NCBI GenBank assembly: GCA_002502095.1
Contig: DAPJ01000005.1
Coordinates: 15,763-79,762, forward strand
Reading direction: 5' to 3'
DNA: 64,000 bases
Origin: Euryarchaeota archaeon UBA62
GTDB lineage: Archaea > Thermoplasmatota > Poseidoniia > Poseidoniales > Thalassarchaeaceae
In this document: one piece after another, positions 36,966 to 60,783 of the stretch
Position numbering within the stretch: position 1 is the first letter of the stretch
Layout: each line of letters opens with the position of its first letter
Made by a program: the position numbers and the translations under genes
Notes under the pieces: generated by a model
Told to the model about the DNA's origin: nothing
Seen by the model: the letters and a program-made list of their open reading frames with translations, nothing else
Databases searched by the model: none

Positions 36966-39900
36966 ATGTATGCAAGGAAATCAACTTTCCTTGTCCTTAC
37001 TGTTTTGTTATTTTCTTCATGGTCGGGAATGGTTTCCGCCTCTCCTCAAGGTACAGATTCGATACATTCTCAGGATCTCGATAATTATCATTTTGAGAAA
37101 TGGGCCTCTCTGGAATTTGCCTCAGAGCACGTACACCAAATCAGGCAAACTTCAGGCCTAATACACTCGCCGTATGGGTCATTTGATCCATTGATGGATG
37201 ACTACCCAATCTTTGGAGAATTAGATACCGGCGATTACAGTTACTCAGATAGGCCAGTCTTTGTGATTCAATCTGATAGCTCTGACATTTCGGGAATATC
37301 ATATTCAGTGGAAGAGGTAGGGGGCGCAATACTCGACTATATGCCCGATAGCGCGCTTCTTGTGAGGCTTCCCCTACACGTTAATGCTGATAATTTCTTA
37401 GACTCTTTAGCCAATGTAAGGTGGTCCGGGCAAATGCCTGATATCTGGAGGGTATCTCCTGAAATCCTAAGTAACATAAATCTCCCTTCATCACAATTAA
37501 ATCTTCAGATTTTACCTGCTAATGACTTAACTATTGAAGAGCTGACCTCCCTAGAGAGGGACCTATCCCTGATTTCCAATTATGATCAATCAACTAATTG
37601 TGACTCGTGGCTGTGTACGATAGAAAGTATTGATTCAATGTGGATTCCTCTCTTATCCAAAGACTGGAGGATTCTGCATATCCAAACCACAAGCACTGCA
37701 TCGGTATACAATAGCGTGGCTAGAGAAATTTCTGGCGTACAAGGTGCATATGAGCAATCATCGATACCTCTGGATGGAACAGGTGAGGTCATCGCTATTT
37801 CGGACACTGGCCTAGACGAAGATCATGGAGATTTCGATGGAAGAATAAGATCAGTATACAGCCAATTTGGGCCAGATAATGATAACTCGGACCTACTTAG
37901 TGGCCACGGAACCCACGTAGCCGCAACGCTCCTAGGAGACGGCTCAGGACAATCATCCGCACTTGGTATGGCTCCTGGAGCAACATTTCACATGTACACT
38001 CACGAGTCTCAAAGTGGCTTCTTCGGTATTTACGGCTCATTGTATGGCCTATTTACACACTCATGGAATCAGAATGCTAGGATACATACCAATAGCTGGG
38101 GCACATCAAACTTAGGTAATTATAGCCAGACATCTTCTAATGTAGATGATTTCGTAAGCGACTATCCGGGCTATATGGTCCTATTTTCAGCTGGCGATAT
38201 TGGTAATACTAATGATACTGGTATCACCCCTCCTGGTACCTCTAAGAATGCTCTAACAGTGGGTGCATCAACAACTGGTTCTTATGGTTCAGAGCCTTCG
38301 GGAAGCGTAGTTTCTTTCTCATCACAAGGATTGACCAATGATGGCAGAATAAAGCCAGAAATTGTTGCACCCGGAGTCCTCATTTGCTCAGCTAGAGCTG
38401 AGGAAGCAACTCTGGTCGATGGACAATCATGCTCCGAATTAACTCACGACGATGGTACTACACCACTCTATGTCGCAATGAATGGGACCTCTATGGCAAC
38501 ACCTGTGGTTGCGGGGGCATCCGCGCTCGTCCGACAGTTTCTGAGGTCTGAAGGAATCAGTGAGCCCAGGTCCGACCTGATTAGGGCAATTCTAATCAAT
38601 GGGGCTGTAGATATCGGAGATAGTAATGTTCCCAACCCCTCTGAGGGATGGGGACAACTCTCACTCGACAACAGCCTCTTTCCAGTCTCAGAAAATGGAG
38701 TGGAAATGGACGTGATGTATGATTATTCAAGAGAGCTTTTTCCAGGTCATGGATTCACCTACACATTCGATGTAAGTCCAGGTGCAGGACTAGATGCTAC
38801 TCTGGCTTGGAACGATCTAAAGGGGTCATCAGTCGCAAATCAATCAGCCTCTCGTTTAGTTAATGATCTCGATCTTTCTGTTACTGCTCCCGATGGGACA
38901 ATTTACCTTGGAAATGAATTCATTTCCGGATTCAGTGTATCTGGCAACTCCATAGATTCCCTGAACAATCTTGAAAGGGTAAAAATTCAGGATGCCTCGC
39001 CCGGTACTTGGACAGTTAGAGTAGGAAACTCAGGAGGGGATACACAGGGCTATTCTCTGGTATTATCTGCTATAGCGAGTGAGATTAGTGAGGCGGATCT
39101 AACTGTTTTCGAAGGTTCTATATCTACTTCAGTGGAGAATCCTTTGCAAGGCGACACTATTCTAATTGAGGCCGCATGGGGAAACCAAGCTACCGCTACT
39201 GCATTAGAATATGATGTGGAAATCCACGATATGACCACTGGGAACTTATTGCATACCTCAAGACGCTCGTCAATTGCAGGAGGCGGACTTGATTCACTCT
39301 CATTCCCCTACTCATTCTCATCAACAGGTGAGCACATACTCAGACTCTCCCTCGACTCATCTTCGGAGGTATTCGAGTTGAATGACGAGGCCAATGGCAT
39401 TAACAATAACATAGCCGAAATGATCGTACAGGTTTCTCAGATAGGAGTGAGAATTACTCCTCTTTTAGAAAGTGGAAATCTGCCATCCAATCCGCTGGAA
39501 TTTGAAGATTCAAGAACTAGAGGTATGAATCCGAGGGAGACCAACTCTGTATACTTCCCTCTCGAACTTAGAAATGAAGGAACTTCAACTATATCCGTCC
39601 AACTCAGCGTTTCTCCTGTAAATATAGTTTCAGAGAATGGGGTATTGCAACCACCATCAGATGAATGGTGGAAAATCCTCAATCAGACAGGACCATGGGA
39701 ACTAGGGCCGATGGGAAGCGAGGGCGATAGGATAGTGGTCGAGCTAAATCTCACCGCTCATCCACGATCCACTTCTTCATCCCTTCCAGGCGAGGTTTAT
39801 GCTCTCCCAGGTACGTTTGTAACCGATTTGAATCTGTTCGATGTAAACGCCCCCACCGTGAATAACGTAATCAGACTCGAAGCAGAGGTAGACAGAATCG

Positions 39901-41705
39901 AGGGGCTGGTCACAGTTCTAGCTGGAGAAGGAGGGGCAGAGGCCGAACCGGGAGACTGGGCCTCTTTCTCTCTTGCAGTAGGAAATGACGGAAACGGCCC
40001 TACTCGATATATTGTATCATGCTCAACTGAAAATTCATGGCCAGTGAATATCTGGGATTCCCAGTCTTCAGAACTCCTTACAGATCCCATAGGTAGGTTA
40101 CTTTATACTACTCTCCCAATAAAAATTAGGGTTCCTAAATTACCGAATGGTGAGCCCGCCGCGGGAAGTATTGAGGATGTCACATGTGTGACTGAATCTG
40201 TTAACGATCCTTCGTTGAGTATTTCTGATACGGTATCTGTACTCGTACTGGCCAATGATGACTTCGGAACAGAAATATTTTCACCTTCTGGCAACCCACT
40301 AGGTCCTTTGGCATTAGCTTCCGGAAGGGCCGTCATAAACGGAGATATGGTGACTACCACATTAGAAGTCAGCAATAATGGCAATATCCCGATGACATTC
40401 GAAGTAGATGCTTTCTCTTCGCTCAACACTTGGCCAATTCAGATTATTCATGAGGAAGAGGAATCAATGGATTCTATTTCTGTTGAAATATTGTCTGGCC
40501 AAGTAGCAGTTTTCCAGATTAATACTCTGGTTCCAATGGCGGCTCAAATGGGAGATTCCAATACAATCACTACGAGAGTGACACAAATTGGAGGAGATGT
40601 GATTTCCAATGGGACCAAGCTAGTTGTCAGAGAACTGGCAGAGCTGGATATTTCTGGGGACTCCTCTATTTCCGCGGCGCCGGGACTAACAGGGGTTGCG
40701 AATATCATGATTCAGAATTCCGGCAATGTTGATTTGGTAGTGTCCCTGACTCTTGGCACCATACCTTCGGATTGGTCTGGCGGATTCATGACTGCTGGAA
40801 GTTTCGCAATGAATATGAATCAGCAGGCAGTCGTTTCTGTCGCTTTAGAGCTACCAGGTGCTATTCCAGCAGGACCTCAGGAAGAATCGATCCCTGTAAT
40901 AATTGAATTTACAACACCTGCCTTCGTGACACATTCCGAAACTGTTTGGCTAGATGTTTTGGTCTTGTCATCCGCATGGCTAGATCTTTCTGTTCCGGAT
41001 GACACCGTGGAAGATGTATCGCCCGGCAATCCCGCTACTTTCGATATAACCTTGCAGAACATTGGTAATTCTCAGACTGAAGTCTCCCTTGAGGTAGTTG
41101 GTGACGAGAATTGGAGATTTGATGTCGACCCATCATCAGCAGGGACGATAGAGCCCGGAGAATCGATTTCTATAGAGGTAGTGGCAGACCCGGGGGGGAA
41201 TGCAGAGTATGGCATTATTGAGTTGGACGTCTTTGCAAATGGTACAGGGGAAATCGAGGTTTCAACTAATGCATACCTAAAATTACAGGTTAGCAAAGCA
41301 AGGGAATCTACAGAAGGACTCATTCCTTCATGGGCCGTAGGATTAATTTTTATTGTCGTAGTTTCAGTATCTGCCATTCTGATTGTTAGGGCGAGAAGGG
41401 CTTCTTCTCTGGCGGCACGCCCCGATGAAGAACTGATTCCCCCCGGATCAGCACTGCTTACTGGCTCCACTAATGAGAGAAGGGCGGCCGCTTTGGAGAC
41501 TAGCGCTTCAGGAGAAGTCCTTACTGGAACCGTATCCGAGCAAGAACTGAATGATGCAATCTCCTCATCATCACTCCCCTCATTAACTATCGAAAAGGCC
41601 CCTGAAGGAGCCCCTCCCTTGCCACTTTCAGGCCTTCCGGAAGGATGGACAATGGAGCAATGGGCCGCTTACGGTAATATGTGGTGGGAACAGAATCGTC
41701 CGTGA
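36966..41705 (+). CDS. Giant membrane-anchored subtilisin-like protease (peptidase S8) of 1579 aa, with a long C-terminal extension
   Basis: Signal peptide. IAISDTGLDEDHGDF (Asp), HGTHVAATLLGDG (His), NGTSMATPVVAGASALV (Ser). C-terminal TM LIFIVVVSVSAILIV plus about 100-aa tail. Confidence 0.85.
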   Translation: MYARKSTFLVLTVLLFSSWSGMVSASPQGTDSIHSQDLDNYHFEKWASLEFASEHVHQIRQTSGLIHSPYGSFDPLMDDYPIFGELDTGDYSYSDRPVFVIQSDSSDISGISYSVEEVGGAILDYMPDSALLVRLPLHVNADNFLDSLANVRWSGQMPDIWRVSPEILSNINLPSSQLNLQILPANDLTIEELTSLERDLSLISNYDQSTNCDSWLCTIESIDSMWIPLLSKDWRILHIQTTSTASVYNSVAREISGVQGAYEQSSIPLDGTGEVIAISDTGLDEDHGDFDGRIRSVYSQFGPDNDNSDLLSGHGTHVAATLLGDGSGQSSALGMAPGATFHMYTHESQSGFFGIYGSLYGLFTHSWNQNARIHTNSWGTSNLGNYSQTSSNVDDFVSDYPGYMVLFSAGDIGNTNDTGITPPGTSKNALTVGASTTGSYGSEPSGSVVSFSSQGLTNDGRIKPEIVAPGVLICSARAEEATLVDGQSCSELTHDDGTTPLYVAMNGTSMATPVVAGASALVRQFLRSEGISEPRSDLIRAILINGAVDIGDSNVPNPSEGWGQLSLDNSLFPVSENGVEMDVMYDYSRELFPGHGFTYTFDVSPGAGLDATLAWNDLKGSSVANQSASRLVNDLDLSVTAPDGTIYLGNEFISGFSVSGNSIDSLNNLERVKIQDASPGTWTVRVGNSGGDTQGYSLVLSAIASEISEADLTVFEGSISTSVENPLQGDTILIEAAWGNQATATALEYDVEIHDMTTGNLLHTSRRSSIAGGGLDSLSFPYSFSSTGEHILRLSLDSSSEVFELNDEANGINNNIAEMIVQVSQIGVRITPLLESGNLPSNPLEFEDSRTRGMNPRETNSVYFPLELRNEGTSTISVQLSVSPVNIVSENGVLQPPSDEWWKILNQTGPWELGPMGSEGDRIVVELNLTAHPRSTSSSLPGEVYALPGTFVTDLNLFDVNAPTVNNVIRLEAEVDRIEGLVTVLAGEGGAEAEPGDWASFSLAVGNDGNGPTRYIVSCSTENSWPVNIWDSQSSELLTDPIGRLLYTTLPIKIRVPKLPNGEPAAGSIEDVTCVTESVNDPSLSISDTVSVLVLANDDFGTEIFSPSGNPLGPLALASGRAVINGDMVTTTLEVSNNGNIPMTFEVDAFSSLNTWPIQIIHEEEESMDSISVEILSGQVAVFQINTLVPMAAQMGDSNTITTRVTQIGGDVISNGTKLVVRELAELDISGDSSISAAPGLTGVANIMIQNSGNVDLVVSLTLGTIPSDWSGGFMTAGSFAMNMNQQAVVSVALELPGAIPAGPQEESIPVIIEFTTPAFVTHSETVWLDVLVLSSAWLDLSVPDDTVEDVSPGNPATFDITLQNIGNSQTEVSLEVVGDENWRFDVDPSSAGTIEPGESISIEVVADPGGNAEYGIIELDVFANGTGEIEVSTNAYLKLQVSKARESTEGLIPSWAVGLIFIVVVSVSAILIVRARRASSLAARPDEELIPPGSALLTGSTNERRAAALETSASGEVLTGTVSEQELNDAISSSSLPSLTIEKAPEGAPPLPLSGLPEGWTMEQWAAYGNMWWEQNRP

Positions 41706-49362: not shown

Positions 49363-49830
49363 CTATTTAGAATCGTCAATAGCGGGTTCAATTACCATTA
49401 GAGGAGAATTTGCTTCGATGCTATCTCCTGGTTCACAATTCAACTCAGTAATTTTCCCAGAAATAGGGGCCTGAATTTCATTCTGCATCTTCATGGCTTC
49501 TAATATCATTATGACGTCCCCTTCGGAGACAAGCTCATCCTGTCTCACTGAGATGGAGATAATTTTTCCTGGGATTGATGACGACACTACTCCTGATCTC
49601 TTAGCCTTTCGAGCTCCCTTCTTTTTCCTGGGAGAGGGTGACCCGCGTTTACTGCCATCTACTTTGATAGAGAATACTCTACCTTCTACTTCGACCTTCC
49701 AAAAATCTCCTTCTTTCTCCATAGAGACTTCAAAATCTTCTCCATCGACATTTACTTTTCTTTTGTCGTTCATTAGATCACCTGGAAGAACTCCTCTTCG
49801 ATTTAGCTCTGAACAGATTCCTTCTGCCAA
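49363..49830 (-). CDS. Biotin carboxyl carrier protein (biotinyl domain subunit of acyl-CoA carboxylase / methylmalonyl-CoA decarboxylase)
   Basis: Biotinyl-lysine motif ILEAMKMQNEI inside a lipoyl/biotinyl-type hammerhead (GDVIMILEAMKM...GKITEL). The start may be the internal Met near 49773. Confidence 0.8.
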   Translation of the reverse strand: MAEGICSELNRRGVLPGDLMNDKRKVNVDGEDFEVSMEKEGDFWKVEVEGRVFSIKVDGSKRGSPSPRKKKGARKAKRSGVVSSSIPGKIISISVRQDELVSEGDVIMILEAMKMQNEIQAPISGKITELNCEPGDSIEANSPLMVIEPAIDDSK

Positions 49831-49981
49831 TAATTACTCTTCGATGGTCTCTAGCCCACTCCTTTCCCCTGTTTCTCTGTGAAGAGGGTTGGATAAAATC
49901 TCCTCCCTCCTCTTCTAGAATAACAGCAACCATCGCTACTACTTTTAATTTAAGCAATCTACTATCGTCCAAAAAAACACC

Positions 49982-51535
49982 TCAAAGCGGAATATTACCA
50001 TGTTTTCTAGCTGGCCTAACCTCTTCCTTTTCAAGCAGCGCACCGAGTGCTTTGACCATGACGATCCTCGTCTCACTTGGTTGAATTACATCATCAAGAT
50101 ATCCAAGAGAGGCAGCACGATATGGGTTTGCAAAAGTATCTTCATAGTCATCTACTAGTCTCTCCCTCTCCTGTTCAGGGTTTCCAGAAGAGGCGATCCT
50201 CCTTCTATGAATAATTTGTACCGCTCCCTCTGCTCCCATAACTGCCAGCTGTGCAGAGGGCCACGCAACGTTGTAATCTCCCCTGATGTGTTTGGACGAC
50301 ATTACATCGTAAGCGCCCCCATATGCCTTCCTGGTAATCACAGTCAATTTAGGGACCGTCGCTTCGGCATATGCATAAAGTAACTTAGCGCCATGTCTGA
50401 TTATCCCTCCCCACTCTTGGCTAGCACCTGGAAGAAAACCAGGAACATCTACAAAGGTTAGAAGAGGAATATTGAATGAATCACAAAATCTTACGAATCT
50501 AGCCGCCTTAATGGATGCATCAATATCCAAGCACCCGGCAAGAAAATTAGGCTGATTAGCAACCACTCCAATAGTATGTCCTCCTAGTCTGGCAAATCCG
50601 ACTACTATATTCATTGCATATTCTGACTGAACCTCTAAGAATGCCCCATCATCTACTGTTTCTTCTATTGCCACAATGATATCATACGGCTCTTTGGGGT
50701 TATCTGGAACTAAACTTTGCAACCTGTCACAGGCCCTATCTATCGGATCCATAGTAGGTAAAACGGGAGCTTTCTGTAGATTATTCGATGGCAACATACT
50801 AATGAGCTCCCTTGTCAACTCTAAGGCCTCTTCATCGTCATCTGCAGTAAAGTGAGTCACACCAGACTTTCTAGCATGAGTCGAAGCCCCTCCCAAGTCC
50901 TCAAAGGAAACCTCTTCGTTAGTTACTGTCTTGATTACTTCCGGTCCGGTGATGAACATATGGGAGGTCCCATCCACCATAATTACAAAATCAGTAATCG
51001 CTGGAGAGTAGACTGCTCCTCCTGCACAGGGTCCCATGATGACTGAAATTTGTGGTATGACTCCACTTGCTCTGACGTTCCTGAAGAATATTTCCGCATA
51101 AGAACCAAGACTAGCTACGCCCTCCTGTATCCTTGCACCCCCGCTGTCATTTAGTCCAATGACAGGAGATCCAGTTTTGAGGGCCATGTCAAGAATCTTG
51201 CAAATCTTCAGGCCATGCATCTCCCCGAGGGAGCCACCGTATACTGTGAAATCCTGAGCAAAGCAGTACACTGTCTTCCCTCCTATGGTGCCATGCCCAC
51301 ACACCACACCGTCCCCAGGGATTACATTCCTATCCATATCAAAGTCTCTGCATCTATGCTCTACCAACGGATCCACCTCCATGAAAGATCCATCATCTAA
51401 GAGTAGATCTAACCGCTCTCGTGCCGTTAATTTTCCCTTGGAGTGCTGTGCTGATACTCTCGCCTGACCGCCTCCTGCTATGGCTTGTGCCTTACGCCTC
51501 CGAAGCTCTTCAACGCGTACGTCATCTGCACTCAT
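49982..51535 (-). CDS. pccB: Acyl-CoA carboxylase carboxyltransferase subunit (propionyl-CoA carboxylase beta / methylmalonyl-CoA decarboxylase alpha family)
   Basis: [22 protein letters not shown]-terminus. [16 protein letters not shown] motif. 517 aa. Confidence 0.85.
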
Positions 51536-51638
51536 GTACCTCCATATGTTGGGACGTCAATATGTCTTACTAATGAAAACGTGAAAATATGGCCTGCGGT
51601 TGCTTCAAGGAGGGTCACCGGTTCGCCTATTCGATACT

Positions 51639-52076
51639 ATGAAGATAGTAATGGCCAAACCGGGCCTTGACGGCCATGATCGAGGTGCAAAAGTAATAGC
51701 CAGATCACTTAGAGATGGAGGTCATGAAGTCGTGTATACTGGCCTTAGGAGGACTCCTGAGGAGATTTCAAGAATTGTAATGGATGAAGACGCAAATGCT
51801 CTTGGACTCTCTACATTATCAGGAGCTCATGACGTTTTAGTGCCACGAATTTGTGAACTTCTCAGGGAGACAGGAATGGGCAATGTAATGGTTTTCCTGG
51901 GAGGGATAATACCCGATAGAGATCATGAAAGTATGTTCTCCAGTGGCGTGAGGGCAATATTTGGACCGGGATCAAGAACAGATGAAATCCTATCTTTCTT
52001 AGATGAGGCTAATTCAAGAGTGGAGTCAGGTGCCCCCATTGGAGTCGGTGATGAAGATGGGTGGCGTTGGAATTGA
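51639..52076 (+). CDS. Methylmalonyl-CoA mutase small subunit, the B12-binding domain
   Basis: MKIVMAKPGLDGHDRGAKVIARSLRDGGHEVVY contains the DxHxxG cobalamin-binding motif. About 145 aa. The track ORF starts at 51600; the internal Met is preferred. Confidence 0.85.
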   Translation: MKIVMAKPGLDGHDRGAKVIARSLRDGGHEVVYTGLRRTPEEISRIVMDEDANALGLSTLSGAHDVLVPRICELLRETGMGNVMVFLGGIIPDRDHESMFSSGVRAIFGPGSRTDEILSFLDEANSRVESGAPIGVGDEDGWRWN

Positions 52077-52948
52077 TTGATCAAGACTCCCTCCTAAAAT
52101 CAGCAGCCGATGGTAACAGGAGGGACTTGTCAAGATTGCTAACTTACCTAGAAAAGGGTATAAAGCTCAATTTTCCTGAAAATACCCCTCCAAGGAAATC
52201 ATCGGTTATGGGAATAACCGGTCCTCCAGGAGTCGGAAAATCATCTCTAATAGGGAGAATAATCAGTTATTGGAATTCTAGAAATCAGAACGTAGCTGTT
52301 CTGGCTATTGACCCCTCGTCTCCAAGGTCAGGTGGGGCACTGTTGGGGGATCGAGTAAGGATGGACTCAGCTGACTCAGGAGAGTTGGTTTACGTGAGAT
52401 CTCTTTCTACTGGGGGCCAGCCAGGTGGAATGTCATCATCGTTGATTTCAATGATTGAATTACTGTCCTACTGTGGATGGGAAAATATTGTGATAGAAAC
52501 CGTTGGATCGGGCCAGTCGGAAATTAAAATAGTTGCATTCGCAGATAAAATAATTTTAGTTGATGGCCCAGATAGAGGCGACATAATTCAAGCCGAGAAA
52601 GCAGGCATTATCGAGTTAGCAGATATTATTGTGATTAACAAATCAGACCTTCCGGGGGCTATCAAAGCTGCCGAATCAATACGTTCTTCTCTCTCATTTG
52701 CCGACGGAAAGAAATCCCCGGATGTTGTCCTCGTCTCTGCACAGATGAACGAGGGAATAGATGAAATGATGGAGTTAGTGCAAAACTGTGATTCTCCGGA
52801 TTGGAGAGAGAAGATAAAAATACAAGAAAGATTGATCTCACTGTGGGATTCTCGTCTACTATCGTCTCCCAATTTGAATCGGGTCATAAACGAATTACAA
52901 ACCGGAAGTATTTCACTTGATGATGCTCTGGACGATTTAGCTAGGTGA
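52061..52948 (+). CDS. meaB: MeaB/ArgK-type GTPase (methylmalonyl-CoA mutase-associated G-protein chaperone)
   Basis: P-loop GITGPPGVGKSSLIGRI. NKSD (NKxD) motif in VINKSDL. Overlaps the preceding B12-domain gene by 16 nt. Confidence 0.85.
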   Translation: MALELIDQDSLLKSAADGNRRDLSRLLTYLEKGIKLNFPENTPPRKSSVMGITGPPGVGKSSLIGRIISYWNSRNQNVAVLAIDPSSPRSGGALLGDRVRMDSADSGELVYVRSLSTGGQPGGMSSSLISMIELLSYCGWENIVIETVGSGQSEIKIVAFADKIILVDGPDRGDIIQAEKAGIIELADIIVINKSDLPGAIKAAESIRSSLSFADGKKSPDVVLVSAQMNEGIDEMMELVQNCDSPDWREKIKIQERLISLWDSRLLSSPNLNRVINELQTGSISLDDALDDLAR

Positions 52949-53709: not shown

Positions 53710-54021
53710 TCACTTGCATCTCTGGCCATATTCATCATTTATTTCTGAGTGCTTGAATCCCTCCTCTTCGAGCATTCGGAGTTTTCCCTCTGCCCCTCCT
53801 AGGCCAGAGTAACCACCGACTCTTCCATCCGAACGAATCACTCTATGGCATGGAACAAAGGGAGCATACGGATTTGCTGCACATGCATTGGCAACTGCTC
53901 TCGATGAGCCAGGTTTCCCAATAGCATCAGCAATCTGCTTGTACGTCCTAGTTTCTCCAAGGGGGATAGAAAGCAACTCCCTCCATACTAGTTTCTGGAA
54001 GGAAGTTCCATTCATTTTCAC
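53710..54021 (-). CDS. ogt: Methylated-DNA-protein-cysteine methyltransferase (Ogt/MGMT), a stand-alone C-terminal catalytic domain
   Basis: Active-site PCHRVIRSDGRVGGYSGLGG with the catalytic Cys. Only 103 aa, so it lacks the usual N-terminal domain. Confidence 0.85.
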   Translation of the reverse strand: MKMNGTSFQKLVWRELLSIPLGETRTYKQIADAIGKPGSSRAVANACAANPYAPFVPCHRVIRSDGRVGGYSGLGGAEGKLRMLEEEGFKHSEINDEYGQRCK

Positions 54022-54305
54022 GGCTCTTCCTCTTCCAATCCGGATGGACGATATCCCTCATCCATTCCCACTATCTCGTAATTTGAGGGAAAAAGGGCTA
54101 TTGCCACACCTCCGATCATACACCCAAGGCCAAGTAAGAACTGCCCAGTTATCATCATTTCAAGAGCTATGGCAACTAAGATTAAACCTCCGATATTGGA
54201 TACCCAAACCAAGTTTTTGAATGTCGATAATGATACTCCTGTGGTCCTCTCTGTCCTCTTGGGACCAAATTCTGCACCGAATCTAATTGGGTCTTCATCA
54301 CTCAA
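54018..54305 (-). CDS. Small two-TM membrane protein
   Basis: 95 aa. Hydrophobic segments LILVAIALEMMITGQFLLGLGCMIGGVAIALF. The 4-nt ATGA overlap with ogt suggests co-translation. Confidence 0.45.
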   Translation of the reverse strand: MSDEDPIRFGAEFGPKRTERTTGVSLSTFKNLVWVSNIGGLILVAIALEMMITGQFLLGLGCMIGGVAIALFPSNYEIVGMDEGYRPSGLEEEEP

Positions 54306-54309
54306 AATA

Positions 54310-54642
54310 TCACCTGTCTATCATTAGTATTGCATCTGTTGGGCAAGCAAGAACGCATAACTGGCACCCAGTACAAGGGTCTCTCAGAATCTTCGCTTTC
54401 CTGTTTACCTCGATATTTAGGATGGGACTGGCAAGCGGAGTATCATACAGCTCTATGGCATCATCATCACAAACAATCGTACATTGATCGCACCCGATGC
54501 ACTGCTCTTCCTTGACCCACGCGACAGCATCTTCTCCTCCCTTCAATTTAGCCTGATCTTCAGACCTTCTAGCATCTAGAAGAATCTTAATTCTCCGTTG
54601 CTCAGATTTTCTCCGTGCTATCAGATCTTTGATGTCCGTCAC
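54310..54642 (-). CDS. 2x[4Fe-4S] ferredoxin
   Basis: Two cluster motifs: CIGCDQCTIVCDDDAI and CTGCQLCVLACPTDAI. Confidence 0.85.
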   Translation of the reverse strand: MTDIKDLIARRKSEQRRIKILLDARRSEDQAKLKGGEDAVAWVKEEQCIGCDQCTIVCDDDAIELYDTPLASPILNIEVNRKAKILRDPCTGCQLCVLACPTDAILMIDR

Positions 54643-54721: not shown

Positions 54722-54985
54722 ATGGAAGCCTATGAGGGACCCTGGATATACGATCCTATGTGTTGGATTGGCTTGACACAGGGCATATTGATTTGGGTGT
54801 TGATGACAATGTATATTTCTCCTCAGATAGCATGGATTTCATTTGCTTGTGGAGGACTAATTGGCTTCTTCATTTGGCTTACTGCACTCGGCTATCGCCG
54901 AATACAAGTTGCGAAATTCACTTTGTATGGCATAGCAATAAATGCATTATTGGCTGTATTTTCAGGTTGGTTAGCTTTCGGTTAG
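54722..54985 (+). CDS. Possible small membrane protein (uncertain)
   Basis: 87-aa ORF with 2-3 hydrophobic helices. It lies in a 346-nt gap between minus-strand genes. It could instead be a non-coding leader or intergenic region. Confidence 0.3.
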   Translation: MEAYEGPWIYDPMCWIGLTQGILIWVLMTMYISPQIAWISFACGGLIGFFIWLTALGYRRIQVAKFTLYGIAINALLAVFSGWLAFG

Positions 54986-54988
54986 AGC

Positions 54989-57772
54989 TCACTGACTCTT
55001 CCCTGCCTCAACCTGCCTGGCTAGGAAGCTAACGACATCCAATATTTCGAAGTCATGTCTTGGGTCCCCTTCGAACTTTAGGCACTCGAAATGGGAGACA
55101 CACTTTGGACAGGATGTCAGCATGATGTCAGCCCCAGTTGCGTTTACCTCTTCGAATCTCTGGACTCTCAAAGCTCTACTATTCTCATTACAGCTCATCA
55201 TACTGGAAACACCACAGCAAAGTGCATCTTCGCCATGATGCTCCATCTCTACTAGGTTAACTCCTTCTACGTTGGATATGAGGTCCCTTGGCTGGTCATA
55301 GATATTCATCTGCCTCCCTAGTCTGCATGGGTCATGGAAAGTGACCGTAACATCGTCATCCGATTGTAGATTCATGTCAAAACCATTCTCTACCAGGAAT
55401 TCAGTGGTATGCATCACCTTCATGTCCTCCAACTCATAGTCCAGGGCGAATGTTCTGAAGCACTCGGCGCAAGATGTCACTAGGGTGTCAATCCCACTCT
55501 CTCCTAGTTTCTTCTGATTGTACGCCTTGAGCTTCTCAAAGACTTCTGTCATTCCTTGCCATTTCTGATCATGGCCACAGCACTTCAAGAAATCCCTACC
55601 AAGGTAAGTGACATCTTCACCCATCTCTTCGAATAGCGTGAATGCGGAAGTTGTAGCATCTCCTAGATTCATGGAACCTTCGTTGACGTGACTGAAAATC
55701 ATTTCTTGATCCAGGTAGTCGACACATCCTGGGTAGTATCCGATGTTCGAATCAATTGGATACTCATCAATCGACATGAAGTATCCGTCAGCATCCTCCT
55801 CTGCTTCAGCAGCTAGGACCGCCTGTAATACAGTATGAGGAATTTCAGTAGCAGGAGGGCCGCCGACTATCATATTCCTCCTGATGTCAACATATGAATC
55901 ATAATCCACTAGTTGGGGACAGGCATTGGTACAAGCAGAGCACGTCAGACATGAATACAAAGGAACCCCGTCGTCCTCATTGTTCCAAGTATTGTAGATG
56001 ATGTTCAGCTTATCTCCAGAGTTGAATAGCCTCACTGGACAAGCGTCATCACAAAGATCGCAGCCGTAGCACTTGTTCATCTCGTATTCGTATCCTCTCG
56101 CCATGCTCCTCATGAGCATGAATACCAAAGCACCGACTCCCAGACAAGGTATGAATAACGAATATATCAATTTCGCATCAAGACTCTTCGGATTCTTGTG
56201 ATACGTTGGATTCTTCAAGTACATTGCCGACATGGTCTCTAGATCCAGAGTCGACTCTGACCTGACTAGTGAAGTGCCATCATCATTCAACAGTAGGGGC
56301 TGGTATGCTACCACAGACAAGCTCGTGATTACCTCTACAGACTCGTTGATTCCTTGCGATGTGGTCATGTAAGAAACACTGTAAGTATTCCCCGCATCTA
56401 GGTATATGGTTTCCGAAACACACCCTTCCGTACTCCAAATTTCATCTCCTGACGAGTCACTTAGAACCAAACTCTGAGAATGGACACCTGCTCCTCTGAC
56501 TGTAGTCCTGAATAGACATCCAATATCCGCTGGAACTTCGGAAACTCCCAGGTCTTCTACTTCGAATGTCATACTTACTTCGTATGTAATCTCAGATCCA
56601 TCTGCAGTCCCGGGGAAAGATGTTTCATCCTCGGCCGAATTTCTACCTGTGGCACTGTCGGCATGTCCATTATCACCTGCAAAGTCAATTATCTTGAATT
56701 TCGTAGGTTGGAAAATACCCCAATTAGACCAATGCGTCGCGGCAATGACACACCAATCAGAGGGATCTTCTTCTGATGACAATCCATTCCATGCAGCCAG
56801 TGTTGAGCTTTCCTCATAAGGTATGCATTCGTCTTCCCAGTCAGCCCAAACATTCCCTTCCTCTACGTGTACAAGGGTGTCAGAAGGCTGTGCCCTGAGG
56901 GAATCCAAGTCTTCGACATCGTCCATGGCACCGAGCCCACCATAGTCCCAGAAACCATTCTCATACACAGGCCATGTGACAACAGATATGAGTACAGCGG
57001 CAATTAGAGATCCTACAGCAACCTGACGACCAATCCTTGGGGTAACTCTGGAACCTACTGAGCTAAGCAGGAATTTCCTGGTAGGGAAATATATGACTGC
57101 GAATAAGAAAATTCCAGTAAGTATCCACGGAACCGCATTGAAAACCTCAGCAGTCCAGGGGGCTTGTCTTCCACACATTAGTTCAGAATGAGAACCAGTA
57201 AAGCAATAGTCACTACGATCTTTGGCATACAAGTCTAGGAATATATTGATCGAGAAAACCGATATGAACCAGACATGGGCTAAATAAACAGCTCCCGCAG
57301 TTGCAAACCATGGATCTTCAACCCCTCTCTTTTCTCTACCGGGTAGGAAGGGGGGAAGTGCGAGAATACCAACAGGAAGTCCTGTAATTGCGGCTCCCCA
57401 CCAAGCAGCGTTCCAATCGATAACAGGAGTTCCGAAGAACTCTCCGATAGGGCCTGCTGGAATCACAAATTGAGGAAGATACTCGCCCCATCTTAGGTAT
57501 CCGTATGAAAACAGAACGTACCAATCGGGGAATACGAAACCAGCTTGCGCGAATGGATCAGCCGCACTATGCAGTGGGGGAGGTATCAGCCAAGAGTAGA
57601 ATGCTATGGTCATGACAATCGAGGCAAAAATTATCGTATCTCGAAGTACTTCAGTAGGCCAGAAAGGATGTCCAGTAAACGTCCTCCTCCTCTCGGTATC
57701 AGCTTCCAAAAGCTTGTTTCTCTCGCTGATGTATGTATCAGCAATTCTACCAAATCTATCCATCATCCCCAT
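54989..57772 (-). CDS. Fusion protein: cytochrome b6f subunit IV (PetD)-like quinol-site domain, large acidic ectodomain, one TM, and a cytoplasmic HdrD/GlpC-like module (2x[4Fe-4S] plus 2 CCG domains)
   Basis: N-terminus YGEPAWP-like HPFWPTEVLRDTIIFASIVMTIAFYSWLIPPPLHSAADPFAQAGFVFPDWYVLF has the PEWY-equivalent PDWY. C-terminal CYGCDLCDDACP and CLTCSACTNACP ferredoxin motifs. Two CCG motifs LKCCGHDQ...DPCRLG and ALCCGVSS. Confidence 0.8.
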   Translation of the reverse strand: MGMMDRFGRIADTYISERNKLLEADTERRRTFTGHPFWPTEVLRDTIIFASIVMTIAFYSWLIPPPLHSAADPFAQAGFVFPDWYVLFSYGYLRWGEYLPQFVIPAGPIGEFFGTPVIDWNAAWWGAAITGLPVGILALPPFLPGREKRGVEDPWFATAGAVYLAHVWFISVFSINIFLDLYAKDRSDYCFTGSHSELMCGRQAPWTAEVFNAVPWILTGIFLFAVIYFPTRKFLLSSVGSRVTPRIGRQVAVGSLIAAVLISVVTWPVYENGFWDYGGLGAMDDVEDLDSLRAQPSDTLVHVEEGNVWADWEDECIPYEESSTLAAWNGLSSEEDPSDWCVIAATHWSNWGIFQPTKFKIIDFAGDNGHADSATGRNSAEDETSFPGTADGSEITYEVSMTFEVEDLGVSEVPADIGCLFRTTVRGAGVHSQSLVLSDSSGDEIWSTEGCVSETIYLDAGNTYSVSYMTTSQGINESVEVITSLSVVAYQPLLLNDDGTSLVRSESTLDLETMSAMYLKNPTYHKNPKSLDAKLIYSLFIPCLGVGALVFMLMRSMARGYEYEMNKCYGCDLCDDACPVRLFNSGDKLNIIYNTWNNEDDGVPLYSCLTCSACTNACPQLVDYDSYVDIRRNMIVGGPPATEIPHTVLQAVLAAEAEEDADGYFMSIDEYPIDSNIGYYPGCVDYLDQEMIFSHVNEGSMNLGDATTSAFTLFEEMGEDVTYLGRDFLKCCGHDQKWQGMTEVFEKLKAYNQKKLGESGIDTLVTSCAECFRTFALDYELEDMKVMHTTEFLVENGFDMNLQSDDDVTVTFHDPCRLGRQMNIYDQPRDLISNVEGVNLVEMEHHGEDALCCGVSSMMSCNENSRALRVQRFEEVNATGADIMLTSCPKCVSHFECLKFEGDPRHDFEILDVVSFLARQVEAGKSQ

Positions 57773-57782
57773 TTATCACACC

Positions 57783-58649
57783 TCAATGTGGCTCCGCTAT
57801 ACCTTGTGCCCAAACAATGAACAAATGTGCAAGAATGAGCGAAGTAACTACTACTGGAAGTATGAAGACATGAAGGAAGTACATTCTGGTAACCGTCTGT
57901 CCTGAGATTGTAGTACCGGCGAACATAGCGGTTGCAACCCAACCTCCAATCAGAGGGGTACTATTTGCCATGTTGATTCCAATAGTTGCAGCACCGAATG
58001 CTAGGCTATCCCATGGGAGGAGGTATCCTGAATAGCCAAAGAAAATTGTGAAGAACATCAGTGCGACTCCAATCAACCAGTTTAATTCCCTAGGATTCCT
58101 GTAAGCACCGGTGAAGTAGACCCTACACATGTGCAGGAATACAGCAGCGACCATGAAGTGCGTAGTCCAGTGATGTATGGATCTGATGATGTATCCGAAA
58201 GGAAGTTGTGTCATTATGAATTCCATGCTACTATACGCAGGAGTTGGATCTCCCTCTCCACCCGGTACGTAGTATAGTCCTAGAACAGTACCTGTCAGAA
58301 CTAGGATTACGAATGCCAAGAAGGAAATCCCACCTAGGCAGTATAGGGGATACCAATACCAAATTATTCTGAGCTTGTATTTCTCAGCATGAGTCATGGG
58401 CATTTGCCTGTGCATGCCGTAGTACGCATCCCTGCTCATCCCCCAGTAGTCCTGAATTCTGAATCTTGTATCTAGCCACGAGAATGCCCACAGGAATGAC
58501 TTTTCTGCTAGACCCATGCTACTAGCACTAGTCTCGACCGCTCGCAGTATTTCTTTCCTCGGCATCTCCTCTCTTTCTTTCCTCAGTGTTAGAGCTACTA
58601 TTACTACAACTAAGGTTATGAAGACCCATAGAAACCAGAATTGAATCAT
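57783..58649 (-). CDS. petB: Cytochrome b6-type cytochrome b (N-terminal 4-helix haem domain)
   Basis: SIHHWTTHFMVAAVFLHMCRVYFTGAYR...PRELNWLIGV...GYLLPWD. Haem His pairs spaced 14 (helix B) and 15 (helix D) as in b6. Confidence 0.85.
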   Translation of the reverse strand: MIQFWFLWVFITLVVVIVALTLRKEREEMPRKEILRAVETSASSMGLAEKSFLWAFSWLDTRFRIQDYWGMSRDAYYGMHRQMPMTHAEKYKLRIIWYWYPLYCLGGISFLAFVILVLTGTVLGLYYVPGGEGDPTPAYSSMEFIMTQLPFGYIIRSIHHWTTHFMVAAVFLHMCRVYFTGAYRNPRELNWLIGVALMFFTIFFGYSGYLLPWDSLAFGAATIGINMANSTPLIGGWVATAMFAGTTISGQTVTRMYFLHVFILPVVVTSLILAHLFIVWAQGIAEPH

Positions 58650-58658
58650 TTTCTCACC

Positions 58659-59513
58659 TCAGTCGCAATATGTGTACCAGTCTTTGAAATCAGGCAGAGC
58701 CTCTATCAAATCTCCGTTAAGAACGAATGGAATCAATGGCATCCCCATTGGTGCCGGACCTCCGGCCCTCTTAATCCCAATGAAATCAAATTCAGCACCA
58801 CTTGATCTATTTCTGGCCCTATTCTTCTCTATGACAGTAGGGTCGAACCTAGACGAGTGACAGATACAGAACAGCTTACTTCCCCCAGAGTCAGTTCCAC
58901 TTGGAACCCACTGGTCTTCGGTAAATTCGTTAGTAACCAGTTGCCACCCCGGGATGCAACAAAGGTGCGTACACCTTGAAAATATTAGTATCAGGTTGTC
59001 ATGTATGGAAAGAGACTGATATTGGGGATCTTCATCTAGCTCGTATCCAGAGCCAACATATGAGCCATCTGCCGTGTATCCATCCATAAATTGAAATCGA
59101 GGCTTATCCTCAATGAGGGCACTACCCTTATTCTCTTCATGAGGTACATACACTGCATTTACTGGCATTCCCGACCATACTCCCTGGGCTGCTGACATCC
59201 CCGTGGCGGAACTGGCGGCCGCATCGACGAACGATTGGTATGTCATGGGCTCCAAGTGCCTATCTCCGTACCATACACTATCCTCTGCCCCCGTCGGTAC
59301 CCAGTATCTCACAGCAGTGTCTCCTCCATCTGCTTCTGCCTGCCCCATTAGTAAGGATGCGAACCCAACACTCCCAATGCTGGCAACGGTAATGGCACCA
59401 GCGGCGGTATTGAACGAGTGCCTCATGAACTCGCGCCTGTCTATCAGGTGCCCCTCTCCGGACGAATCCTCCGAGCTTGAAGAACTATCTCTGAGCGTGA
59501 ATTTTCTTGCCAT
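58659..59513 (-). CDS. petA: Rieske [2Fe-2S] iron-sulfur protein with a twin-arginine (Tat) signal
   Basis: Tat motif DRREFMRHSFNTAAGA. Rieske box I CTHLCCIPGW and box II LFCICHSSRFD. Confidence 0.85.
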   Translation of the reverse strand: MARKFTLRDSSSSSEDSSGEGHLIDRREFMRHSFNTAAGAITVASIGSVGFASLLMGQAEADGGDTAVRYWVPTGAEDSVWYGDRHLEPMTYQSFVDAAASSATGMSAAQGVWSGMPVNAVYVPHEENKGSALIEDKPRFQFMDGYTADGSYVGSGYELDEDPQYQSLSIHDNLILIFSRCTHLCCIPGWQLVTNEFTEDQWVPSGTDSGGSKLFCICHSSRFDPTVIEKNRARNRSSGAEFDFIGIKRAGGPAPMGMPLIPFVLNGDLIEALPDFKDWYTYCD

Positions 59514-59515
59514 AC

Positions 59516-59965
59516 TTACACCTCATATTTCTTCCATGATTCAGGATCTTTCGTAGTGATATACTTGTTTCTCCTGCTCTTCACGATTACTATGTCAGGC
59601 ATTACATACTTCATGTATATCATTCCCAGTATTATTACAGTAAGCAATAACATCCCTAAGAAGAAAGACAACATCTGTTGATCCCATTTATTGTAAAGCC
59701 CATATGAAAGTGAACCAGCCCAGTAAAGTGACCAAACTATTCCCCAAAGGCCTACTAAAATTATTAGCCATGAATCTCCAGAAGGAGAGACGCTGGCTCT
59801 AACAATAGACCCTGCAGGGGCCTCATTGAAAACCCCGTGTTCAATCGCAGTCTCATAAGCCTCCTCTGTGAGAGATATTCCATCAAGGGCCTCCCTGGCG
59901 TCTTCCACGCTCACCTCTCCCGATGCTACCTGCCTGAGCATCTTCATTACTACGTCATCCCTCAT
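59516..59965 (-). CDS. Small membrane protein: about 60-aa soluble N-terminus plus 2 TM, co-transcribed with the Rieske/cyt b genes
   Basis: 149 aa. Hydrophobic helices WLIILVGLWGIVWSLYWAG and FFLGMLLLTVIILGMIYM. 2-nt gap to the Rieske gene. Confidence 0.5.
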   Translation of the reverse strand: MRDDVVMKMLRQVASGEVSVEDAREALDGISLTEEAYETAIEHGVFNEAPAGSIVRASVSPSGDSWLIILVGLWGIVWSLYWAGSLSYGLYNKWDQQMLSFFLGMLLLTVIILGMIYMKYVMPDIVIVKSRRNKYITTKDPESWKKYEV

Positions 59966-60783
59966 TACTGATCACCCCTTCTCTGGTGCTTAATCCTCAG
60001 TCTCAGAAGATTACTCCTGCCCTCATAATGTCTTGAGAATCCATACCTCAACATCAATCCACAAAAGATAATCACGATAACAACAGCGGCGAAGCCGAGC
60101 AGCCCTAGCCAATGCGCCCTCATACCAGCTCCCATGTGGTGTAGGTCCACCCCTTCTTCCACAGGTGCCGGTGGCTCTATGTCACCATTTCCTACGAATA
60201 CAGTCCTCGTCCCTCCAAATTCACCTTCATCTATAGACGCACTTAGCCTGTTCCACCTGTCCAGTTGCGAGGGAATCCCGTCTCCATTAACCGAGTTCCC
60301 AGCCAACCAAATCGTAACAACACCAGTACCTTCTTCTGGAGCAGTCCATGTGATATGCCAAGTTCTGTCAGAAACCTTCGATCCAGAATTGCTGTGAGTG
60401 AGTGTAGAAAGATCGTCTTCCCAGTTGTACATCAAGGACTCAAATCCAGCCGAGGCGGTGAGGGTACCTTCGCTAACCCTCATGGAAAATCCACCGGTAT
60501 GGGAAGTCGTATCTGCCACAGGACCCCCAATGATTTGAATTGACATTTCATAGGAATCTCCTGGTTGGTAACGATGGGGGACATCGGTCAATATTAGAGT
60601 GACAGAATTATCCGGCTCCTCGGCGTGACATGTGCATCCTGCAAGCGCCACATCTCCCTCATTATTCGCATCGCCACCTATGCCTGTGGGATTGGCCTGT
60701 GACCCACCAGCCGTCAGCACAGCGACAATAGTGATAGCCAGTACCTTCCTTACGGTGAGCACACTCGACGCCATCCACAACAC
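59965..60783 (-). CDS. Secreted, C-terminally anchored protein encoded by the first gene of the Rieske/cyt b operon (putative redox partner, unknown cofactor)
   Basis: Signal peptide VRKVLAITIVAVLTAGGSQA. About 200-aa ectodomain with GCTCH and a His/Met-rich HHMGAGMRAHW segment. TM WLGLLGFAAVVIVIIFCGLML plus basic tail. Confidence 0.5.
   Translation of the reverse strand: MLWMASSVLTVRKVLAITIVAVLTAGGSQANPTGIGGDANNEGDVALAGCTCHAEEPDNSVTLILTDVPHRYQPGDSYEMSIQIIGGPVADTTSHTGGFSMRVSEGTLTASAGFESLMYNWEDDLSTLTHSNSGSKVSDRTWHITWTAPEEGTGVVTIWLAGNSVNGDGIPSQLDRWNRLSASIDEGEFGGTRTVFVGNGDIEPPAPVEEGVDLHHMGAGMRAHWLGLLGFAAVVIVIIFCGLMLRYGFSRHYEGRSNLLRLRIKHQRRGDQ

Follow-up and report, generated by a model that had tools for sequence, protein, structure and literature searches.

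The 64,000-nucleotide stretch analysed here, which we refer to as the window, comes from contig DAPJ01000005.1 (positions 15,763 to 79,762) of Euryarchaeota archaeon UBA62, a member of the Thalassarchaeaceae. On its minus strand, an open reading frame (ORF) encodes a protein in which a domain resembling subunit IV of cytochrome b6f (PetD) is joined to an iron-sulphur (Fe-S) module of the type found in heterodisulfide reductase subunit D (HdrD). We propose that this fusion gene encodes subunit IV of the only Rieske/cytochrome b complex in the Marine Group II (MGII) archaea, and that its Fe-S module most likely forms a port on the negative (n) side of the membrane through which cytoplasmic electrons would reach haem bn/cn and then the quinone at the quinone-reducing (Qi) site, the direction of flow being the part that we infer. 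Taken whole, this best explanation has in our estimate about an even chance of being right.

An intact fusion gene conserved in the Poseidoniales

The ORF is a single uninterrupted frame of 927 codons that begins with ATG 10 bp past the stop codon of the cytochrome b6 gene. Its parts, in window coordinates, are as follows.

54989..57772, minus strand: whole ORF, 927 aa, comprising subunit IV, an insertion with ectodomain, helix H and an HdrD-like module
57227..57682, minus strand: cytochrome b C-terminal/subunit IV core, residues 31-182, helices E, F and G (hhalign, phmmer)
57173..57205, minus strand: loop C190-x4-H195-x4-C200, placed on the positive (P) side, residues 190-200 (alignment)
56966..57160, minus strand: extra transmembrane (TM) hairpin, residues 205-269, with TM segments 210-228 and 251-269 (hydropathy, AlphaFold2)
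56171..56965, minus strand: acidic ectodomain, residues 270-534, made up of an alpha/beta subdomain and then an eight-stranded beta-sandwich
56111..56170, minus strand: last TM segment, residues 535-554, equivalent to helix H of compact relatives (alignment A2, hydropathy)
55853..56095, minus strand: 2x[4Fe-4S] ferredoxin-like domain, residues 560-640 (Pfam Fer4_8/9/10)
55073..55747, minus strand: two CCG domains, residues 676-900 (Pfam CCG; Foldseek to EtfD, LutA and HdrB)

More than 100 homologues of 908-969 aa, with 59-96% identity to the fusion protein, were found in independent marine assemblies and are labelled, where a family is named, as Thalassarchaeaceae, Poseidoniaceae, Poseidoniales or Thermoplasmatota. 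In a collection with one genome per species, 224 stretches encode a relative of the fusion protein, and the best 80 of these, to which the counts out of 80 loci given below refer, match residues 1 to about 925 except where the end of a contig cuts the gene. Counts out of 54 refer to MGII-type representatives, and those made on 78 sequences to alignment A2, which includes compact relatives from other archaea. We rejected the explanation that petD and hdrD are separate genes run together into one long ORF by a frameshift or mis-assembly, which has practically no chance of being correct, because the protein is conserved at full length across at least 80 Poseidoniales species genomes: 80 of 80 species loci show the same continuous frame, as do more than 200 clusters drawn from independent assemblies, at the identities given above, and nothing was found in favour of an artefact. 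The PetD-HdrD fusion is an intact, conserved and fixed feature of the order Poseidoniales.

A hydropathy scan detected six TM segments (46-64, 125-143, 161-179, 210-228, 251-269 and 535-553), and the distribution of charge, read by the positive-inside rule, predicts an inner location for the N-terminus and the C-terminal Fe-S module and an outer one for residues 270-534. A preliminary description of this DNA had proposed one polypeptide composed of the quinol-site half of cytochrome b, an acidic ectodomain lying outside the cytoplasm and HdrD. The intact frame, the full-length homologues and the predicted topology bear out this proposal, and all of the motifs quoted there, including the Fe-S and CCG cysteine patterns, were recovered on re-translation. 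The same description took residues of about 30-270 to be subunit IV; this holds for about 29-182, where hhalign and helices E to G support it, and fails for 183-269, which belong to an insertion considered below.

The subunit IV-like domain

Direct evidence for the identity of the N-terminal domain was weak, and indirect evidence was strong. The Pfam model PF00032 did not match the fusion protein even at an E value of 10, and a Pfam scan of the N-terminal 281 aa and the middle 253 aa alone matched no family. Because PF00032 is silent on the fusion protein, its homology was established through relatives and hhalign. The family profile aligned with P0233, an unsplit cytochrome b, at 99.3% (E 2e-20, residues 29-179 on 241-379), and with P0267, a QcrC-like subunit IV-dihaem c protein, at 98.2%; both of these proteins carry PF00032. 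P0233 was also found with residues 1-560 at a whole-library E of 3e-7, and the same residues used as a HMMER query against 1.84 billion representatives retrieved 147 proteins only. The aligned compact relatives pass the PF00032 gathering score, P0212 for example with 48.7 bits, and in a phmmer search of solved structures residues 31-94 aligned to residues 25-89 of b6f subunit IV (E 0.002).

The ef loop carries PDWY at residues 82-85 (nt 57518-57529), correctly seen in the preliminary description as the equivalent of PEWY. This motif is invariant in 54 of 54 MGII-type representatives, and P82, D83 and W84 are invariant in all 78 aligned sequences. The subunit IV core as a whole is 83% conserved among MGII representatives, and the fusion gene directly follows that of cytochrome b6, an order kept in 79 of 80 loci. 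Based on these alignments, we conclude that the domain is a true subunit IV homologue, and that the fusion protein belongs by homology to the cytochrome b C-terminal/subunit IV family despite its failure to reach the Pfam threshold.

The HdrD-type Fe-S module

The C-terminal module, residues 560-927, is of the HdrD type in sequence and fold. Pfam places a 4Fe-4S dicluster domain at 564-620 and detects two CCG domains (E 4.7e-23). The cubane motifs, CYGCDLCDDACP at 568-579 and CLTCSACTNACP at 608-619, both have the form CX2CX2CX3CP, and the first cubane cysteine lies 14 residues past membrane helix H. The CCG motifs are at 731 and 852, and the two CCG sites contain five cysteines each (C683, C731, C732, C768 and C771; C816, C852, C853, C888 and C891). 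All eight cubane-site cysteines are invariant in the 78 sequences, as are nine of the ten CCG-site cysteines, C732 being present in at least 90%; CCG and CAEC occur in 54 of 54 representatives. Pfam, Foldseek and re-translation thus agree with the earlier reading of residues of about 570-927 as HdrD with cubane and two CCG motifs.

The best solved match was EtfD of M. smegmatis (phmmer E 3e-22, Foldseek E 1e-12), followed by LutA and HdrB with target TM-scores of 0.61-0.76 (0.61-0.67 for HdrB). The best NCBIfam match was TfrB with 109 bits against a cut-off of 385, and the LdhH, GlpC, DsrK, TmcB and HdrC models also remained below threshold. We rejected the possibility that the protein is a true HdrD of an HdrDE enzyme, given that it stays below the NCBIfam cut-offs and that its membrane partner is a subunit IV/b6/Rieske core. 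Because the clusters are of the Hdr type, which is catalytic in HdrB, the module may carry out thiol/disulfide chemistry.

The operon and its partner proteins

The fusion gene lies in an operon of the order choice-of-anchor V protein, DUF7318, Rieske, b6, fusion, ferredoxin and a 95-residue TM protein, the elements of which are kept in 72-80 of 80 species loci. The partners in the window are listed here.

57783..58649, minus strand: cytochrome b6-like subunit, 288 aa, with four haem-ligand His and Cys104 in YCLGG
58659..59513, minus strand: Rieske-type protein, 284 aa, carrying a twin-arginine motif plus CTHLCC and CICH boxes
59516..59965, minus strand: DUF7318 membrane protein, 149 aa (Pfam)
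59965..60783, minus strand: choice-of-anchor V domain protein, 272 aa (NCBIfam NF041895: 96.9 bits, cut-off 42)
54310..54642, minus strand: RnfB-like 2x[4Fe-4S] ferredoxin, 110 aa (Pfam, NCBIfam)
54018..54305, minus strand: conserved two-TM protein, 95 aa, in 75 of 80 loci

Of the hallmarks of a b6f-type complex, the Rieske 2Fe-2S boxes, the four His ligands and the cysteine for haem ci/cn were found. The best solved relatives of the b6 subunit are chloroplast and cyanobacterial b6 (E 1e-41), with which its haem ligands align at His86/100/187/202, Cys104 corresponding to Cys35, which binds haem ci/cn covalently. No other protein of the operon is as conserved as this subunit, whose median identity across 79 loci is 90.6%. 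The b6 subunit also has an N-terminal extension of about 100 aa with an extra TM helix, and the same b6 N-terminus is fused to Big_5 in loci L084 and L090 of relatives and to a cupredoxin plus Big_7 in L089. The Rieske protein gave no match to Pfam PF00355, though both cluster-binding boxes are present; it matched NCBIfam TIGR01416 below the cut-off (E 2e-10) and is homologous to the Rieske genes of relatives. Its box II reads CICHSSRF, with the Ser kept and Phe at the last position, which may bear on its potential; this position is Tyr in high-potential Rieske proteins.

DUF7318, encoded at the same position in loci L083-L090, is a subunit whose gene is conserved in this archaeal Rieske/cytochrome b family. 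The MGII operon contains no gene for a c-type cytochrome (cytochrome f/c1), and the choice-of-anchor V protein stands in that position. This protein has an invariant AGCTCH motif and a C-terminal TM anchor; neither its sequence nor its profile led to a relative of solved structure, and it matched no Pfam family. The anchor and a basic C-terminal tail (LRYGFSRHY.GRSNLL.LRIKH.RRGDQ) are almost invariant. In relatives, the gene upstream of DUF7318 encodes a monohaem cytochrome c (L086), a multihaem cytochrome (L082) or a cupredoxin-like protein (L087; YCFPHKGDKM, Pfam Copper-bind E 0.002, below cut-off), and in cultured haloarchaea a halocyanin is found at that P-side acceptor position (PMC3509893). 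The choice-of-anchor V anchor is homologous to those of the L086 cytochrome c (E 2e-5) and the L087 cupredoxin-like protein (E 1e-4). Because of its operon position and this anchor homology, the choice-of-anchor V protein is probably the P-side acceptor of the Rieske centre, and we regard it as the candidate for that role.

On the other side of the fusion gene, the 110-aa ferredoxin gene is present in 75 of 80 loci, in 25 of these 75 less than 100 bp from the fusion gene. The protein scores 49 bits against the RnfB model TIGR01944 (cut-off 68.7), and a hydrophobic N-terminus is not visible. Since the score is below the cut-off, an N-terminal anchor is not apparent and the other Rnf subunits are reported to be absent from MGII (PMC6336850), the ferredoxin is, as judged from its sequence, RnfB-like only and not RnfB; it is a candidate cytoplasmic partner of the fusion protein. 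The 95-aa two-TM protein is a possible small subunit. In the window the 346-bp gap between the fusion and ferredoxin genes holds an 87-aa hydrophobic ORF on the plus strand (54722-54985). About 50 of the 75 related loci have a gap of 300-390 bp with an opposite-strand ORF of 80-120 aa. Either a small gene was inserted there in a subclade, or the stretch is a conserved spacer.

These genes include all of the pieces noted by Tully 2019 (PMC6336850), who described in MGII genes for cytochrome b and Rieske proteins, no canonical bc1, an orphan RnfB with the other Rnf subunits absent, and an "MGII-specific complex III".

Compact relatives of the fusion protein

Fusions of subunit IV, Fer4 and two CCG domains that have no ectodomain (543-790 aa) occur in metagenome-assembled genomes (MAGs) of other archaea, one of them from Geothermarchaeales. 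In alignment A2 these compact proteins follow the fusion protein to helix G (about residue 179), jump to the last TM segment (about residue 535) and continue via GYEYEMNKCYGC into the Fe-S module. Other relatives have less. Locus L087 encodes a subunit IV-Fer4 protein, then a separate CCG protein that is 44% identical to residues 640-925 of the fusion protein, and a homologue of the 110-aa ferredoxin downstream; L086, from a Halobacteria MAG, has subunit IV and Fer4 only; and L088 (from P0195) has subunit IV only, ending with YE..LN..Y..R exactly where Fer4 starts in the fusions. In the plain subunit IV relatives (P0204, P0195 and P0200; L088), YE..LN..Y..R aligns with GYEYEMNKCYGC, minus the cysteines. 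This ending suggests a loss of the Fe-S module or its precise point of gain. P0204 has a laminin-G domain inserted after helix G, at the same site as the MGII ectodomain. P0189 and P0218 are further relatives with subunit IV only, one of them encoded on a short contig that holds no neighbouring genes. As to whether the PetD and HdrD halves are separate genes in relatives, as the preliminary description had wondered, some have the CCG half as a separate gene or lack it, some lack the Fer4 half, and no intact separate HdrD beside a plain PetD was found among the relatives examined.

Immediately downstream of the compact full fusion, an FlpD/MvhD-like protein is encoded in five of five examined loci (L082, L083, L084, L089 and L090), and the same five also encode some of HdrA-like flavoproteins, polyferredoxins, and HdrB/C-like and FrhB-like proteins. 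Genes for GcvH, a GlcD-like oxidase and further HdrD-like proteins also lie downstream in L083. In the compact loci, a flavin-based bifurcating module may be coupled to the Rieske/cytochrome b complex. From the alignments, we conclude that the PetD-HdrD fusion is older and wider than MGII, only the insertion being MGII-specific, and that the Fe-S extension is, by the same comparison, an old and modular feature of this archaeal family.

Direction of electron flow

In the mechanism that we favour, the Fe-S module would be located at the n-side face of the core formed by b6 and subunit IV, beside haem bn/cn, because the first cubane begins only 14 residues past helix H, and it would constitute a third electron port of the complex. 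The donor would be the RnfB-like ferredoxin, a low-potential carrier loaded by ferredoxin-dependent oxidoreductases, from which electrons would pass to the CCG clusters, the cubane clusters, haem cn/bn and finally the quinone at Qi, such that complex III would double as a ferredoxin:quinone entry point. The ectodomain would take no part in redox chemistry and would be a structural or docking decoration of the P-side. Inward flow is favoured because the conserved neighbour of the fusion gene, in MGII and in L087, is a ferredoxin; because relatives encode modules of the donor type downstream (flavoprotein, FlpD/MvhD, polyferredoxin and FrhB-like); because MGII are aerobic heterotrophs without Rnf; because EtfD provides a structural precedent (PMC13083937); and because Diamond et al. 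2022 (PMC9038741) suggest the same for Angelarchaeales.

Several points weigh against this proposal. We purely infer the direction of electron flow, and that the first [4Fe-4S] cluster would be within reach of the haem is deduced from sequence spacing. Both CCG motifs are complete and of the catalytic Hdr type (CC twice; CAEC, not CPHC), and since a mere wire needs no catalytic CCG, this hints at thiol/disulfide chemistry. The opposite-strand ORF separates the ferredoxin gene from the fusion gene in about two thirds of the loci. Archaeal complex I without NuoEFG may already oxidise ferredoxin.

Outward flow is the main rival, and in our judgement an unlikely one. An electron from the quinol-oxidising (Qo) site would move through haem bL and haem bH/cn into the Fe-S wire and reduce a cytoplasmic disulfide or ferredoxin, the other Qo electron going to the Rieske centre, so that the complex would work as a quinol:disulfide reductase resembling HdrDE/DsrMK, with bifurcation at Qo replacing the Q cycle. 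HdrDE and DsrMK run from quinol to disulfide, which counts for this mode, as do the five cysteines that both CCG motifs keep as in catalytic HdrB, unlike EtfD, and the HdrA, HdrB, HdrC and MvhD-like proteins that relatives co-encode. Such a quinol-driven bifurcating complex III, to which we give the same low probability, would export the low-potential Qo electron and let an aerobic, proteorhodopsin-bearing archaeon make low-potential reductant. Export of this kind has long been proposed for anammox Rieske/cytochrome b complexes and is not known to have been shown there. In the available text of PMC12954380 a similar idea is put forward for these anammox complexes. However, no heterodisulfide metabolism is known from MGII, which are described as aerobic heterotrophs, and the electron would have to travel against the membrane potential. 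Moreover, b6 keeps the cysteine for haem cn that typifies a working Qi site, and the existence of plain subunit IV relatives makes the Fe-S module look accessory rather than a replacement for Qi.

Two further versions of inward flow are lesser rivals. In the first, less probable than outward flow, the CCG domains would oxidise a cytoplasmic dithiol or persulfide carrier (lipoyl/GcvH-like or DsrC-like) and pass the electrons to Qi, the ferredoxin being incidental. The catalytic type of the CCG motifs is consistent with this idea, and the Geothermarchaeales relative has GcvH, a second HdrD-like protein and a GlcD-like FAD oxidase encoded a few genes downstream; yet no candidate gene for a thiol carrier lies within the MGII operon, and the conserved neighbour in both MGII and L087 is a ferredoxin. 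In the second, which has only a slim chance of being right, the complex would be an EtfD-like quinone oxidoreductase whose HdrD module takes electrons from electron-transferring flavoprotein (ETF) as fatty acids and amino acids are oxidised. EtfD is the best solved match, MGII are predicted degraders of fatty acids and protein, and genes for propionyl-CoA carboxylase and methylmalonyl-CoA mutase adjoin the operon. Nevertheless, CC and CAEC occupy the places of the EtfD hallmarks C-T and CPHC, no etf genes were found in the region of the window examined, and EtfD is the only fused HdrD-type protein with a solved structure.

The MGII-specific insertion and its ectodomain

Because the compact relatives jump from helix G straight to the last TM segment, the event specific to MGII is an insertion that adds about 350 aa between helix G and helix H. 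The insertion consists of a Cys-His-Cys loop, a two-helix hairpin and the ectodomain. C190-x4-H195-x4-C200 is invariant in 54 of 54 MGII-type representatives and absent from the compact relatives. AlphaFold2 (AF2) predicts a beta-hairpin of low confidence at residues 190-200; the three residues could bind a metal or provide a disulfide staple close to the Qo/Rieske side. The TM hairpin, predicted by AF2 as helices 205-242 and 245-265, is likewise absent from the compact relatives. After the ectodomain, the chain returns to the cytoplasm in the TM segment LIYSLFIPCLGVGALVFMLM at 535-554, which the preliminary description had placed some 10 residues too late.

Residues 270-534 are hydrophilic, with a net charge of -37 and four cysteines. 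AF2 run with the 78-sequence alignment gave a predicted local distance difference test score (pLDDT) of 85-97 over residues 260-550, and the ectodomain modelled alone folds confidently as a beta-sandwich (pLDDT 87; predicted TM-score, pTM, 0.80). Its structural matches are generic: GOLD, pre-peptidase C-terminal (PPC) and carbohydrate-binding module (CBM)-like sandwiches, and also collagen-binding, toxin and haemagglutinin domains, Foldseek giving a similar picture. With no Pfam match either, the ectodomain lacks a recognisable family, as had been stated from the sequence. It is the least conserved part of the protein (40%, versus 82-91% for the Fe-S module) and varies in length from 232 to 289 aa, except in three representatives with 673-686 aa at the same insertion site (P0327, P0362 and P0379, proteins of 1334-1349 aa), and a Pfam scan of these expanded ectodomains found no family. 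Conserved cysteine pairs were looked for, and two strictly covarying pairs emerged: Cys316 and Cys341 are both present in 27 and both absent in 27 of the 54 representatives, and 51 of 54 have both Cys419 and Cys451. The density of N-X-S/T sequons in the ectodomain is five times that in the remainder of the protein. Because of the positive-inside rule, the covarying cysteine pairs and the sequon enrichment, the ectodomain is best explained as extracytoplasmic, in line with the earlier description of an acidic, cysteine-containing outer region. It is probably a disulfide-bonded, glycosylated extracellular decoration, with a role that would be structural, shielding or docking.

There is a very slight chance that the ectodomain itself is the P-side redox partner of the Rieske centre and replaces cytochrome f/c1, given its P-side location in a complex with no gene for either cytochrome and the conservation of His370 (93%) and His525 (85%). 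We rejected it as a redox subunit because its sequence has neither CXXCH nor a cupredoxin Cys-His-Met motif, no cupredoxin, cytochrome or other redox fold was seen among its structural matches, its conservation is low and its length ranges over 232-686 aa, and it is absent from the compact relatives; the acceptor position is, in addition, already taken by a separate anchored protein.

Comparison with known systems

The MGII complex shares with cytochrome b6f and Firmicute b6c the order Rieske, b6 and subunit IV, the four His and the haem cn Cys, a PEWY-type loop (here PDWY) and the subunit IV helices E to G. Unlike in these systems, MGII subunit IV has an eighth helix, a 370-aa cytoplasmic Fe-S module and a P-side insertion of about 350 aa; cytochrome f/c1 is replaced by the choice-of-anchor V protein, and DUF7318 provides an extra subunit gene. 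The halocyanin-Rieske/cytochrome b cluster of haloarchaea (Baymann et al. 2012, PMC3509893) is similar in its split cytochrome b with the eighth helix on the second subunit, its haem ci Cys, the lack of cytochrome c1, the swapped P-side acceptor and the common DUF7318 family. The Fe-S extension is not described there, whereas the relative from a Halobacteria MAG has subunit IV-Fer4.

The closest account that we found is one sentence in Diamond et al. 2022 (PMC9038741), in whose available text the complex III of Angelarchaeales, a sister lineage, stands beside "hdrD-like and rnfB-like genes" and is proposed as a ferredoxin entry point. Both the gene set (complex III, HdrD-like and RnfB-like) and the ferredoxin-entry proposal resemble what we describe here, but the hdrD-like gene is not described in that text as subunit IV. 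L087 and L089 look like Angelarchaeales-type loci, with a neighbouring V-type ATPase and a cupredoxin acceptor; in contrast to MGII, loci of this type have no ectodomain, and in L087 the CCG part is a separate gene. Our literature search found no description of a subunit IV-HdrD fusion beyond the one-sentence mention in the available text of PMC9038741, and none of "HdrD" as the missing subunit IV, of its link to haem cn, of the split and truncated members of the family or of the MGII ectodomain insertion.

Like HdrDE of methanogens, the fusion protein combines two [4Fe-4S] motifs and two CCG motifs with CC pairs on a membrane b-type cytochrome, and HdrDE likewise reacts with a quinone-like membrane carrier. 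In HdrDE, however, HdrD is a separate subunit whose partner is the NarI-like HdrE rather than a Rieske/b6/subunit IV core, and its substrate CoM-S-S-CoB is not expected in MGII, which are described as non-methanogenic aerobes, the Hdr/Tfr cut-offs of NCBIfam lying far above the scores obtained. Mycobacterial EtfD (PDB 9OJN; PMC13083937) also has TM helices, Fer4 and two CCG domains in one chain, and its structure presents a wire of CCG and cubane clusters from a cytoplasmic donor to haem b and menaquinone. It differs in that its TM domain is NarI-like with its own haem, where the fusion protein has subunit IV, and in that the first CCG has C-T and a [3Fe-4S] cluster of the linear kind, and the His of CPHC completes the second cluster (PMC13083937). 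At the positions of CTG and CPHC in EtfD, the fusion protein reads KCCGHD and SCAECF. Given the absence of the C-T and CPHC hallmarks and of a NarI-like TM domain, we rejected the fusion protein as an EtfD orthologue. QmoC of sulfate reducers has an HdrE-like cytochrome b and no Rieske/b complex. By description, QmoC and the anammox Rieske/cytochrome b complexes can be set beside the MGII complex as quinone-reactive membrane modules with cytoplasmic Fe-S/flavin modules, the anammox complexes differing, in the available text of PMC12954380, by separate NAD(P)-type subunits and no subunit IV fusion.

Other genes in the window

Near the operon, window positions 49363-52948 encode look-alikes, by sequence reading only, of a biotin carboxyl carrier, propionyl-CoA carboxylase beta, the B12-binding domain of methylmalonyl-CoA mutase and MeaB, which look like a cluster for propionate/odd-chain and amino-acid catabolism. 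Four large ORFs, at 10129-15867 (plus strand), 20280-22451, 25680-27677 and 30255-32369 (minus strand), of 1912, 723, 665 and 704 aa, gave no Pfam match at E 1e-5. The window also encodes a beta-helix protein of 1409 aa (2311-6540) and an S8 subtilase of 1579 aa (36966-41705). Annotation of ten other large ORFs in the window revealed nothing linked to the fusion.

Significance

The archaeal complex family to which the fusion protein belongs is highly modular: the P-side acceptor is swapped among cytochrome c, cupredoxin and choice-of-anchor V proteins, ectodomains are inserted after helix G, and n-side Fe-S/flavin modules are gained or lost. MGII belong to the most abundant archaeal groups in the surface ocean, and the locus joins two puzzles of PMC6336850, the "MGII-specific complex III" and the orphan RnfB: the protein that carries the annotation "heterodisulfide reductase subunit D" is the subunit IV that was missing, and the RnfB-like ferredoxin is encoded next to it. 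If electrons flow inward, the complex would be a natural model for the old question of whether ferredoxin from the stroma or cytoplasm can inject electrons at Qi/haem ci, which is debated for b6f in cyclic electron flow; if they flow outward, it would be a model for a Qo bifurcation that exports low-potential electrons.

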